IMG/VR virus record: IMGVR_UViG_3300008516_000159
From: a virus
Direction: 5' to 3' (one strand)
DNA: 64,000 bases
Positions within the stretch are counted from its first letter, which is position 1. Each line of letters opens with the position of its first letter. This document shows positions 15,311 through 42,567 of the stretch, piece by piece. The translations under genes were made by a program, and so were the position numbers. The notes below the pieces were generated by a model. It was not told the origin of the DNA and searched no databases. It saw only the letters and a list, made by a program, of their open reading frames with translations.

Positions 15311-15643
15311 GTGTCAGATGATATATTAAACGCCTTACAAACATCCTTGACTGAGATGCGAGCTCAGTACCGCAAGATCCGCGGGAGACCAGAGGCCGCA
15401 GAAGTCAAGCTTAAAATACGAGAGCTCGAAAAACACTTTGAAACGATTCTTCTGTCGGATATGAAGCGCTTGGGCAAGAATACAGAATTAATCGAGAACC
15501 TGAACCTTTTGATTAAAGAAACAAAGCTTGCTGTTGATAAAATGAAAAAGGTCGTAGATAGAGTGGAAAAAGTGGCAAATGTAATTGATAAGATAAATGA
15601 TGTACTGAAAATTGCCGCAGACGTAGCCAGACAGGTTTTATGA
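15311..15643 (+). CDS. alpha-helical partner protein
   Basis: GTG start after GGAGG, coupled to the upstream lipoprotein; amphipathic C-terminal helix. Confidence 0.7.
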   Translation: MSDDILNALQTSLTEMRAQYRKIRGRPEAAEVKLKIRELEKHFETILLSDMKRLGKNTELIENLNLLIKETKLAVDKMKKVVDRVEKVANVIDKINDVLKIAADVARQVL

Positions 15644-15952
15644 TATATCTAACATTTCAAATAAGGCTTCCAAGTGATCTTCTCTGACACTTCCGTTGAA
15701 TAATGTTGTATCCTCACCGTGATCGAACAAAGTAATTATAATAGACCGATGGTGTTCGCGCCAGTCGTCCTCATTGGCAGGTCCAGCATCCCATATTTGA
15801 TAATACCATTCGGAATTTTTAGGGCTAGTGAACCACCAAGTATCAGAATCCTTGGATTCTTCTTTAAACCCTCTTTTCTTTAAAAACGATGTGAACCAAT
15901 ATTCGTGGTCGTCTTTTAGGTAGGCTTTTGCTTTTCCGACTTTATCTTCCAT
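15638..15952 (-). CDS. hypothetical protein
   Basis: 104 aa ORF. Confidence 0.7.
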   Translation of the reverse strand: MEDKVGKAKAYLKDDHEYWFTSFLKKRGFKEESKDSDTWWFTSPKNSEWYYQIWDAGPANEDDWREHHRSIIITLFDHGEDTTLFNGSVREDHLEALFEMLDIS

Positions 15953-16271
15953 GCCAACTGCGGTTCTGGTAATGCTTTTTCCATCTGTCGAATCTTCTTT
16001 GACGTCTCTCTTTATGCTTTTTTTCCGCTTCTCTTATCGCTTTATAATCTATCTTTTTACAAAAAGGACACGATAAATCATCAAAGTCATCGAACAATAT
16101 CATATAGTGTAATTGCATCCTCATCCATCTGCCGCGGTTAGTTATACCTGTTCGTACCGCGTATCGTCCGAACTTTCTTATGGCCCTTTTGTTGGTGCAC
16201 CACGGCCCACTCAAGGACGCATGTTTACAACTTGTTTTATTTTTGTCATGTGGGTTTCTACACTCTTTCAT
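15942..16271 (-). CDS. hypothetical basic Cys-containing protein
   Basis: 109 aa ORF. Confidence 0.65.
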   Translation of the reverse strand: MKECRNPHDKNKTSCKHASLSGPWCTNKRAIRKFGRYAVRTGITNRGRWMRMQLHYMILFDDFDDLSCPFCKKIDYKAIREAEKKHKERRQRRFDRWKKHYQNRSWHGR

Positions 16272-16290
16272 GATATGCCTTGTGTTTATA

Positions 16291-16489
16291 TGGTGGGGCG
16301 AAGTAACAAAGAACCAGAAAAGACTTTATTTGGATTAGTCTTGAATCTTTAGTCTTTCGTGCCGCAATCGATTCTTTGGTTCTGCCTAGTGGCCAGAGGC
16401 CGGTGAGTTTTGAAAACCGTCAACGATTTAAGCCTTCAAGGAGGTATGTCCTCTAAGTAAGACTCTTCTGTGAACTTTGGCCCCGCCCC
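16291..16489 (-). ncRNA. putative structured RNA with long terminal helix and 3' ACCA
   Basis: 5' GGGGCGGGG pairs with 3' CTTCGCCCC-ACCA; further pairing CAAAG/CTTTG and CAGAAGA/TTTTCTG; no gene-like ORF in the interval. Confidence 0.5.
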
Positions 16490-16494
16490 TCGTT

Positions 16495-16929
16495 TTATTC
16501 CAGTTCTGTCTGCCAGTTTATGCTTTGAATTTCACGATCGAGTTTGCGTCTTTCGATTTCAAAAAGTTCGATTTCCTCATTGAGCCTGGTTATATCGTAG
16601 TTCCTTTCATAAACAGGTTCTTCGCGGTACATTGACGAGTGCTCCGACAGCAACGTTTTTCGGCACTGCTTGTAGAAAATCATGATTGAATCGAGAATGC
16701 GAAGCGCGTTGAGTTTTTCGGTTAGATGATCGGCGTTTGCTTTGTCGATCCTGAGGTTAAGGCTCTCGAGCATGGCTTGAAGTTCTTTGTAATCAGCGAA
16801 AAGCAAGTCCATGTCGAACGGAAGCTGAAAGCCCTGACGCGTCACCAGATTGCTTGTGATCTCCTCCTTGATGTTGTTGATCTTTTTTATAAGATCTTTT
16901 CTTTCCATGAGTGCTTCTGAAAGTTTCAT
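16495..16929 (-). CDS. DIP1984-family coiled-coil protein
   Basis: N-terminus MKLSEAL.ERKDL.KKI and C-terminus LD.EIQSINWQTEL typical of the family. Confidence 0.8.
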   Translation of the reverse strand: MKLSEALMERKDLIKKINNIKEEITSNLVTRQGFQLPFDMDLLFADYKELQAMLESLNLRIDKANADHLTEKLNALRILDSIMIFYKQCRKTLLSEHSSMYREEPVYERNYDITRLNEEIELFEIERRKLDREIQSINWQTELE

Positions 16930-16976
16930 ATACTACCTCTTCTTGGTCTGTATAATATATATGTCTCCAGGAGTAT

Positions 16977-17162
16977 TTATTTTTCCTGGCTCTTACGATA
17001 TTTCCTCATTTGTTCAACCGCATGCGGAAAAGAGCGGCACCTCGGACACACCATTCCTTCTTTGAAGAACGACCATCGTTTCTTTTTCTCTTTAAAAGCT
17101 TTTCTATCTACTATTTCCTGATAGCCACAAATCATACAGGTTAAAAAGAACTCAGTCCTCAT
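16977..17162 (-). CDS. small Zn-finger protein
   Basis: CMICG...CPRC. Confidence 0.65.
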   Translation of the reverse strand: MRTEFFLTCMICGYQEIVDRKAFKEKKKRWSFFKEGMVCPRCRSFPHAVEQMRKYRKSQEK

Positions 17163-17778
17163 TTTTAACCTCTAAATGCACAATCAACGCCTTGTGTTTT
17201 TCTTCTTTGTCTTGAACTTCAACTTCTTCAGGTTTCTCGGTGAGATCAAAATACTTTTCACAGACAGATATAAACTCTTTGGGATTTAGTTCATTTCTTC
17301 CTTTTCCGATGAAAACATATATAACGGCTTTTCCGTCGTCATTTAACACTCTTCGAATTTCTTTTAATGACTTGTTGATGTCTGTAGTGTGCAATACAGA
17401 TAAAGAATAAACAAAGTCAAAAGCTTCGTCTTTATATTTTAAATCTTCAGCGTCTCCGGTCCTGAATTTTACCTTGTCCCGAATTCCTTTCGGTTGTTCT
17501 TTAAGATTTTCCTTTGCCATTTCGATAGCTTCTGGAACTATATCTATTCCAACGATTTCGTCCCTGGCGATTGTAGCCAATAAAAACGTATCAACCCCGG
17601 CAGCACAGCCTATTTCTAAAATCCTATCGAATTTGCCGTAATTTTTGACGATATTTTTTGTTAAATTACTCGGCTTTTTTTTAGTCCAATGTTCTTCGCC
17701 ATCATCATAAACCTTCTTCCAGAATTTTTTATCAGATTCATTAAGAACCTCTTTCATTACATCTTTAACTGATTTCAT
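17152..17778 (-). CDS. class I SAM-dependent methyltransferase
   Basis: ILEIGCAAG motif I, GIDI, GDAEDL, FDFVYS...LHT, RRVLNDDG. Confidence 0.88.
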   Translation of the reverse strand: MKSVKDVMKEVLNESDKKFWKKVYDDGEEHWTKKKPSNLTKNIVKNYGKFDRILEIGCAAGVDTFLLATIARDEIVGIDIVPEAIEMAKENLKEQPKGIRDKVKFRTGDAEDLKYKDEAFDFVYSLSVLHTTDINKSLKEIRRVLNDDGKAVIYVFIGKGRNELNPKEFISVCEKYFDLTEKPEEVEVQDKEEKHKALIVHLEVKNED

Positions 17779-17781
17779 AGT

Positions 17782-19014
17782 TCACCTCTTCTCGCTGTCT
17801 GTGCTTTCGTCATTTTTGTTTGTATTCTTTTTCGGCTTTACGCCATCTTTCTCGGGTGCCGATTCAGCTGGAGGCTCTGGCGCTTCTTCGGTTTTTGTCT
17901 CGATAGGTTGTTCTGCTGTGGCTTTATCCAGCGACGCTTGAATAATATTTAAAAACTCATCGCCGCCCTTGACACAAAACGTAATAATATCATCTTCCCG
18001 GAACTTGCCTGATTTATGAAACTTTCTTACAGCCTTATCTATTTCTGGATAATGCCAGGCTTTTATCGTCCAGCTGCCTGTTGATTTCTTTGGAACTCTT
18101 TTTTCTTTGAGTTGCTCTTCCAGTTCTTTCGAGGCAGGTATGATGATTTCATAATCTTTCAGTATATTAAATAAACCAGAATAAGGGTCCAATCCATGGG
18201 ACATGTCGAAAAGAAAGCTCATTTGCTTACCAAACGTGCCCATTCTGGACTTGATGATCTTAGCCCTGAGACCGACAACACTAACACCTTTGGCAGATTT
18301 GTCTATCTCGAACAAATCTTTGTCGAACGATAACTCCACTGTCAAAGATGGGGCAAACAACATAATAGTACCGCCGCCAACAACCTTTTTGGGACCATAT
18401 AAATCCATTGATTGCGTATAATGCGCCGTCATGAGCAGACACATATTCATTTTTTGGATTTTCCGTGCGTAAGTTCTGAAATATTCTCTGACCTGTTTGG
18501 CTTTTGCACCCATGTCAGAGCCCTTTGCTGGGTTGATTTCTTTCTCAGTCGAGATCATTGACATAGAGTCAATAACCATTAGAACTTTCTTGTTGGATTG
18601 ATTCTTTTCGATGATATCGATAACCTTGCCCATTTTAGCCTTGAGTTCGTCCATGATATCGACAGGCGAATATAGAATTTTGTTCGGGTCGGCACCAATA
18701 AACTTCGCAAAATTTGCATCTGCGCCGCCACCTTCTGCGTCCAAATATATAATCAAATCAATGTTTGGATCTCTCATACAAGAGAGAACCATGGCTGTTT
18801 TACCTGTACTCGGATCTCCAACAAAACAAACAGATCTACCAGTTGGCAGACCCTTAAATAAACTCTTGGAACATATCCAGTTTAACGCATAATTAGATGT
18901 GCTGATCCAACCAGGTATTTGACCGTACTTTTTATCTTCACCGAATACAACCAGAGGATTTTCTGGGTAATCGGCCTTGAAGCTTTTTACCAACTCTTTC
19001 GTAAGGGTATCCAT
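17782..19014 (-). CDS. recA: RecA/UvsX-like recombinase
   Basis: ISTSNYALNW, GLPTGR, Walker A GDPSTGKT, LDAEG, Walker B MVIDS, GGG loop. Confidence 0.9.
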   Translation of the reverse strand: MDTLTKELVKSFKADYPENPLVVFGEDKKYGQIPGWISTSNYALNWICSKSLFKGLPTGRSVCFVGDPSTGKTAMVLSCMRDPNIDLIIYLDAEGGGADANFAKFIGADPNKILYSPVDIMDELKAKMGKVIDIIEKNQSNKKVLMVIDSMSMISTEKEINPAKGSDMGAKAKQVREYFRTYARKIQKMNMCLLMTAHYTQSMDLYGPKKVVGGGTIMLFAPSLTVELSFDKDLFEIDKSAKGVSVVGLRAKIIKSRMGTFGKQMSFLFDMSHGLDPYSGLFNILKDYEIIIPASKELEEQLKEKRVPKKSTGSWTIKAWHYPEIDKAVRKFHKSGKFREDDIITFCVKGGDEFLNIIQASLDKATAEQPIETKTEEAPEPPAESAPEKDGVKPKKNTNKNDESTDSEKR

Positions 19015-19055
19015 ATAGGTAATGCTCCTAACTAGGCTTTTATACTATATATGTT

Positions 19056-42481: not shown

Positions 42482-42567
42482 TTAGACTTCCAATCAAGCT
42501 TATCTTGTGATTATTTTATCTCTACATTATCTTTGGGAACACATATATAATATATATAAAAGCTTAT

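Follow-up and report, generated by a model that had tools for sequence, protein, structure and literature searches.

Behind a small gene in a T4-like phage genome lies a stretch of roughly 200 nt whose two ends can pair with each other, and the locus raises the question of what this stretch is: an ordinary spacer, the 3′ untranslated region (UTR) of the gene, or an RNA that works together with the encoded protein. We analysed the locus within a 64-kb stretch of viral DNA (64,000 nt of IMG/VR record IMGVR_UViG_3300008516_000159; hereafter, the window). It lies inside a minus-strand gene block, in the neighbourhood of a RecA/UvsX-like gene, a peptide deformylase gene and a SAM methyltransferase gene, with two tRNA-Glu genes about 15 kb off; the genes adjacent to the element are those for a DUF6847 protein, a 61-amino-acid (aa) zinc-ribbon protein and a methyltransferase. 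An initial annotation had proposed a candidate pair of protein gene and non-coding RNA here. All the sequence features that it named are found where it had placed them, and the comparative evidence set out below bears out the pair itself.

The DUF6847 gene and its surroundings

The gene (positions 16495–16929, minus strand) encodes a 144-aa protein with an isoelectric point (pI) of 5.1. The open reading frame (ORF) matches the Pfam family DUF6847 (PF20935) over the whole profile (positions 1–141 of 141; E 8.1e-14; 52.2 bits against a cut-off of 27) and scores 63.4 bits against the NCBIfam model DIP1984_fam (NF038048), narrowly below the cut-off of 70. Its sequence also retrieves PDB entry 3KDQ (1.3e-5), the crystal structure of a DIP1984-family protein from Corynebacterium diphtheriae. 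The AlphaFold2 model of the window protein, built with 33 relatives as input, comprises four helices and has a pLDDT of 92.8. In a Foldseek comparison, the model aligns with 3KDQ_A at a TM-score of 0.91 and an rmsd of 1.8 Å (probability 1.00); beyond 3KDQ, the search returned no further meaningful structural match and no nuclease-like fold. Judged by profile match and predicted fold, the ORF is a member of the DIP1984/DUF6847 family, as first annotated. It shares with the family the whole Pfam model and the fold of 3KDQ, and it differs as a divergent phage branch, being 24% identical to 3KDQ and falling below the NCBIfam cut-off.

DUF6847 proteins often carry the wrong label ‘septicolysin’, including those on Acinetobacter resistance plasmids. 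Searches of the literature on DIP1984, DUF6847, PF20935, 3KDQ and septicolysin yielded neither a functional study nor any mention of an RNA partner. The window protein has no match in PHROGs, PADLOC matches neither the protein nor its two neighbours, and searches of GenBank phages with the 800-nt locus (blastn) or with the protein (tblastn) gave no match. Among 33 aligned family proteins, the invariant or near-invariant residues are mostly polar or aromatic (R10, D12, N58, N65, D131, Q135, N138 and W139), a set that would suit base recognition. The window protein is acidic, and the family median pI is also low, at about 5.8; acidity is unusual in RNA-binding proteins, and this property therefore counts against a reading in which protein and RNA form a particle.

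About 27 nt upstream of the DUF6847 ATG lies the promoter-like word CATATATA (16956–16963, minus strand). The word occurs 20 times in the 64-kb window, against 2.7 occurrences expected, on strands that track the local gene orientation (further sites are, for example, 229–236, 19046–19053 and 42542–42549), and it also precedes the homologous gene in the related locus L001. It is likely a phage promoter word, resembling the T4 late-promoter type, and the earlier assignment of a promoter motif to this gene is thus a reasonable one. Between the gene and the element the word is absent, and a scan of 15600–17900 found no sigma-70-like promoter.

The zinc-ribbon ORF, which carries a CxxC...CxxC pattern, lies directly upstream of the DUF6847 gene (16977–17162, minus strand) and is kept in L002, the locus of a close relative; it shows weak PHROG similarity to ‘ribosome associated inhibitor A; zinc finger domain’ (E 0.0015). 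On the other side, a 109-aa ORF with no family match (15942–16271, minus strand) separates the RNA element from the next gene (15638–15952). In L002 and in a second close relative, L109, the next gene comes directly after the element and this ORF is extra by comparison; because of this arrangement, it looks like a recent insertion in the window, possibly a small mobile or homing-type gene.

An end-paired element and its relatives

The stop codon of the gene (TAA, 16495–16497) is followed by 5 nt and then by GGGGCGGGG, which opens a structured RNA element of 195 nt (16295–16489, minus strand), delineated from folds, from homologous elements in relatives and with a sequence profile. The two ends of the element form a long helix that we denote the terminal rod (P1) and that is supported by both fold and covariation. 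Its purine-rich 5′ strand (16464–16489, minus strand; segments GGGGCGGGG, CAAAG and CAGAAGA) pairs with its 3′ strand (16295–16321, minus strand; segments UUUUCUG, CUUUG and CUUCGCCCC) in blocks of 9, 5 and about 7 bp; the minimum-energy fold contains 20 such end-to-end pairs. Within the rod, the fold contains a small hairpin (hairpin A, GAGG ... CCUC; 16441–16453, minus strand); relatives are predicted to form a short hairpin at the corresponding place, and covariation did not resolve it. Two copies of the word AAGACUAA lie at 16349–16356 and 16335–16342. The initial annotation had described this same arrangement, with a 5-nt gap, an interrupted terminal helix of about 21 bp, a GAGG/CCTC hairpin and repeated words, and each of these was recovered.

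Two kinds of unit occupy the interior between hairpin A and the 3′ strand of the rod. The first is a single internal unit of the AARAYU type, UUCAAAACUCACC (16402–16414, minus strand), which was recognized in a MAFFT alignment and is mostly unpaired (unpaired probability 0.77). The second is a row of 7-nt units (16332–16360, minus strand), which reads ACGAAAG ACUAAAG AUUCAAG ACUAAUC or, in another frame, AAGACUA AAGAUUC AAGACUA AUCC. This row came to light through self-matching, which is best at period 7, with 11 of 14 positions identical (p = 0.004 against shuffles).

Taken alone, the window element is only moderately unusual, and what decides the matter is the comparison with relatives. The fold has a z-score of −2.7, and among random 195-nt pieces of the window about 2% reach 20 or more end pairs as well; both figures would be in keeping with end pairing that arose by chance, or as a by-product of composition, in an ordinary spacer. 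The sense and antisense strands have about equal folding energies, so the assignment of strand depends on the linkage to the gene and on a run of U residues found in relatives.

Relatives were gathered from large protein collections, from viral and metagenome contigs, and from contigs encoding the proteins. Each of the 14 related loci with DNA, from phages or metagenomes, has an equivalent end-paired element, 171–198 nt long; across these loci the protein is about 35% to 98% identical to that of the window. The element starts no more than about 10 nt after the stop codon in these loci, or about 40 nt after it in L202, and four more loci, represented without DNA, have a gene-free gap of 194–395 nt after the gene. 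Since the sequences of the terminal rod are not alignable, the combination of MAFFT and RNAalifold on all sequences missed it, and end pairs were then counted on trimmed sequences. In this count, each of the 11 sequences forms all seven outer pairs of the rod, every position shows two or three pair types, and the rod sequence itself varies by lineage (for example, GGGGCGG, GGGCGAA, GGAGCAG, AAGGAGA and GGAAAAG). This variation in the outer rod is compensatory change. The interior consensus, drawn from five sequences, is weak, and covariation supports the terminal rod only. A conserved and covarying terminal helix downstream of homologous genes, for which the initial annotation had suggested looking, is thus present in this sample.

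Close relatives point the same way. The L002 protein is about 90% identical to that of the window, and between the two loci the element is 93.8% identical, against 86.2% when the gene is compared at third codon positions. One 1-nt indel separates the two elements, and both changes within P1 (G to A and A to G) preserve pairing. The identity above that of third codon positions, together with the 1-nt indel, fits a non-coding sequence under selection.

The units recur as well. The internal AARAYU-type unit lies about 70–85 nt into the element (UUCAAAACUCACC in the window, UUCAAGACUUACC in L001), and in the MAFFT alignment a unit of the AAAACUUA or CAAGACUUACC type stands at the matching relative position in most members. 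Most members also have three or four AARAYU-type units at 7-nt spacing before the 3′ strand of the rod, with three AARRYU units 7 nt apart at the matching relative position, and the lineages of L199, L201 and L202 show a unit row too. Period 7 is both the best and significant in 7 of 11 sequences; in L004 it is weaker than period 9 and not significant, and the spacing is 8–9 nt in L193 and 8 nt in L195. In predicted ensembles, the units are mostly unpaired. Together with the compensatory changes at all seven outer pairs (11 sequences), the occurrence of the element in 14 of 14 loci and its conservation above third codon positions, the conserved unit row means that the comparative data effectively refute an origin by chance or composition.

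On this basis we define a family, the phage DUF6847-associated heptad RNA, a name coined in the present analysis, by its position after the gene, its covarying terminal rod and its row of units spaced by about 7 nt; the window element has all three. Searched with a sequence profile of the element, the 64-kb window yields one copy and 180 unrelated loci yield none; four phage records (72–388 kb) each yield one strong match, at the DUF6847 locus in every case. When viral contigs were scanned with 15-nt words, 103 stretches were returned; the RNA profile matched only the already-known contig among them, and the rest were rejected as chance.

Several members have features of their own. In L208, a weak second profile match (G004:C1:62746-62789; E 0.003), to the unit-row part alone, lies about 3.8 kb from the true element on the opposite strand and may be chance or a second unit row. 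The DUF6847 homologue of L202 (1201–1782) and L203 (1082–1663) has a cysteine-rich N-terminal extension of about 50 aa; its gene overlaps the end of a RecA-like gene, and a small G+C-rich hairpin stands before the partner RNA. In L194, part of a 168-kb phage record, four tRNA genes (549–1462) lie directly upstream of the DUF6847 gene.

The comparison also changes the reading of the 3′ end. The rod in the window is followed by ACCA (16291–16294, minus strand), which the initial annotation had likened to a tRNA acceptor overhang, with the caveat that it overlaps a promoter-like word. The likeness does not hold among relatives: L002 and L109, the closest relatives, whose protein is about 90% identical to that of the window, read ACCT at this point. 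The caveat fits, as the same position in relatives runs into TATA-rich sequence that precedes the next gene. A U-run directly follows the rod in 8 of the 14 loci with DNA (L001, L003, L004, L193–L195, L201 and L202), and in L193 and L195 the GCATATATA word of the next gene comes after the U-run. No U-run marks the 3′ end in the window or in its closest relatives, which counts against the particle reading. Because ACCA is unconserved and a U-run follows the rod in most other lineages, the rod base resembles the end of a transcript and not a tRNA-like CCA.

Such an end would also be expected if the element were a cis-acting part of the 3′ UTR, serving as a terminator, as an exonuclease block and maybe as a site of feedback by the protein, with no separate RNA being made. 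Only 5 nt and no promoter-like word separate the stop codon from the element, G+C-rich pairs form the foot of the rod as in a terminator stem, and the promoter-like word of the next gene comes after the U-run. We nevertheless regard this explanation as unlikely. Termination needs a short hairpin, whereas here an interior of about 130 nt, including the unit row, is kept down to protein identities of about 35–45%; the window clade has lost the U-run and retained the whole element at 94% identity; and bacterial homologues retain an even more elaborate RNA. A plain intrinsic terminator was rejected. The element resembles Rho-independent terminators in the G+C-rich helix base and, in most relatives, the U-run that follows; in contrast to them, its rod encloses conserved sequence and sub-structure instead of a loop of 3–8 nt, and the U-run is missing from the window clade. 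A simple terminator scan of the minus strand came up empty downstream of the gene.

Known RNA classes and a bacterial counterpart

No family fell on the element in an Rfam search of the whole window at the gathering threshold. With E values up to 10, the region 15900–17200 gave a chance-level match to bxd_5 only (E 0.53), and with E values up to 1, ten related phage loci gave nothing on the element. A tRNA or tmRNA identity was rejected, in line with the first reading of the locus: ARAGORN and Rfam place no tRNA or tmRNA there, their finds in the window being the two tRNA-Glu genes at 253–1335, and a 3′ NCCA end is not conserved, ACCA being confined to the window. RAGATH-27 (RF03100) is an orphan structured RNA of phage-like contexts; it was rejected as well, with no match in the window region (E up to 10) or in the ten related loci (E up to 1).

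The DUF6847 family extends to many bacterial phyla, from which we compared 80 loci (L113–L192). The median gap after the gene is 238 nt, and in at least 65 of the 80 loci the motif AGGG[UC]GGGnnnGGGG occurs once, on the gene strand, about 165–300 nt downstream. These bacteria have a richly conserved RNA class of about 200 nt, located about 10–230 nt after the DUF6847 stop codon. An outer helix encloses GUUGGUAGC and GAGGGUGGGnnnGGGG, the latter possibly a G-quadruplex-like loop; three helices, flanked by GUUGGUAGC and the G-rich word, covary, with compensatory change at 15 of 16 predicted pairs; and a T-arm-like GGGUUCGAAUCCC hairpin is often present. Rfam gave no match to this RNA in 20 bacterial or phage loci. 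Profiles of the bacterial and phage RNAs do not match each other in either direction, so sequence similarity between them is undetected, and the 7-nt periodicity was not found in the bacterial class. The two RNAs are alike in that each comes directly after a homologous gene, is about 200 nt long and is closed by long-range helices; they differ in that the G-rich loop and the T-arm-like hairpin of the bacterial RNA are missing from the phage RNA. That DUF6847 keeps a structured RNA behind it even though the class of RNA differs argues for a functional tie between the two.

In many bacteria the pair is chromosomal and single-copy, which speaks against a toxin–antitoxin-like arrangement in which the RNA would neutralize the protein, as in type III systems. 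Phages and mobile DNA often carry such modules, and a small protein gene beside a repeat-bearing RNA recalls them. The units here, however, are 7 nt long against the roughly 36 nt of ToxI-type repeats, the RNA lies downstream of the gene and not upstream, the four-helix bundle has no nuclease-like fold match, and PADLOC recognizes no system. We therefore consider this explanation highly improbable.

The element might instead be a free RNA that acts in trans, co-expressed with DUF6847 and not bound by it, as a sponge or decoy that would occupy an RNA-binding protein, a nuclease or a tRNA-directed defence enzyme of the host. Sponge RNAs typically present short repeated units in loops or single-stranded stretches, and the acidity of the DUF6847 protein, the position of the L194 module directly after four tRNA genes and the T-arm-like hairpin of some bacterial versions would all suit this role. 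Against it, the link to a single protein family is kept in phages and in many bacterial phyla even as the RNA class changes, a persistence that is hard to account for if the two have no direct functional tie, and the phage RNA has no tRNA-like arm. By inspection, the units also fail to match the GGA motif of CsrA or to fit the A-R-N motif of Hfq. The decoy function put forward in the initial annotation finds no direct support, and we hold a free trans-acting RNA to be about as unlikely as the cis-acting 3′ UTR.

Among known systems, the closest analogy is with Ro60 (Rsr) and the bacterial Y RNAs (Yrn1 and YrlA), which are often encoded in rsr–yrlA–rtcB operons. In both cases a protein gene adjoins an RNA of about 100–200 nt whose 5′ and 3′ ends meet in a long stem; the bacterial DUF6847–RNA pairs share two further traits with that system, as they sometimes lie beside RtcB and some have the T-arm-like hairpin. 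The differences are that the DUF6847 partner is a 144-aa helical bundle and not a TROVE ring, that the phage RNA is without a tRNA-like domain, and that Rfam finds no Y RNA or YrlA in the window or, at E values up to 1, in ten related loci. The suggestion that the RNA itself is Y-RNA-like is thus not supported, there being no match to Y RNA, YrlA or any other Rfam family. By analogy, the phage pair would be most like a Ro/Y-RNA-type pairing in its working, with no homology shared.

The genes that flank the bacterial pair are not conserved, and RtcB is the commonest neighbour, at 9 of 80 loci. This neighbourhood suggests, by analogy, a role in RNA damage or repair, and it lends some weight to the link with RNA repair that had been drawn for the phage locus. 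The other side of that link is less favourable: the window has no RtcB, and of four phage records one has it, at a distance of about 90 kb from the locus, which counts against a repair role. In a 388-kb phage record (L197 and L198), one 737-aa frame (G002:C1:112723-114798) contains a split RtcB match that covers profile positions 13–50 and 142–425; the split suggests that an intein or another insertion interrupts the ligase gene.

A candidate protein–RNA particle

We put at about one in two (roughly 0.5) the probability that the DUF6847 gene and the RNA are a two-part module, made from one transcript, that forms a small protein–RNA particle. The gene and the 195-nt element would be co-transcribed from the upstream promoter-like word, so that the element would be the structured 3′ tail of the DUF6847 transcript. 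The purine/pyrimidine rod of about 20 bp would join the ends of the element and thereby mark and protect the 3′ end, a role that we assign to it because the U-run follows the rod in most relatives. The AARAYU unit and the row of three or four 7-nt units would be displayed largely unpaired and may act as docking sites for the DUF6847 protein, which would probably bind as an oligomer, and protein and RNA would assemble into a small ribonucleoprotein (RNP) particle. By analogy with the bacterial pair near RtcB, the particle would most likely act in the damage, repair or quality control of RNA, possibly tRNA, during infection. Other meanings of the units, as RNase E sites, as codon-like GAY/AAY triplets or as Hfq or CsrA motifs, are speculation.

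A broader reading, which we offer tentatively as somewhat short of an even chance, is that DUF6847 and its RNAs represent an ancient, undescribed class of RNPs of large phages and many bacterial phyla, in which an oligomer of the protein reads the 7-nt units and the particle serves in RNA or tRNA damage control. On that broader reading, the phage version would sustain translation or blunt RNA-targeting host defences during infection.

The locus in the window appears to be a clear phage instance of an RNA–protein module that we did not find described in Rfam or in the literature on the DUF6847 names. Its RNA is about as conserved as its gene, yet is missing from Rfam, and genome annotations would do better to label the roughly 200-nt ‘gap’ after these genes as an RNA gene. 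The repetition of the 7-nt units suggests a simple recognition code, and the recurrence of RtcB next to the bacterial pair points towards RNA repair, a field in which we know of few RNA cofactors besides the Y RNAs. If the pair is a real particle, it would provide the first functional handle on the widespread DUF6847 family and would give phage biology a new class of structured RNA.
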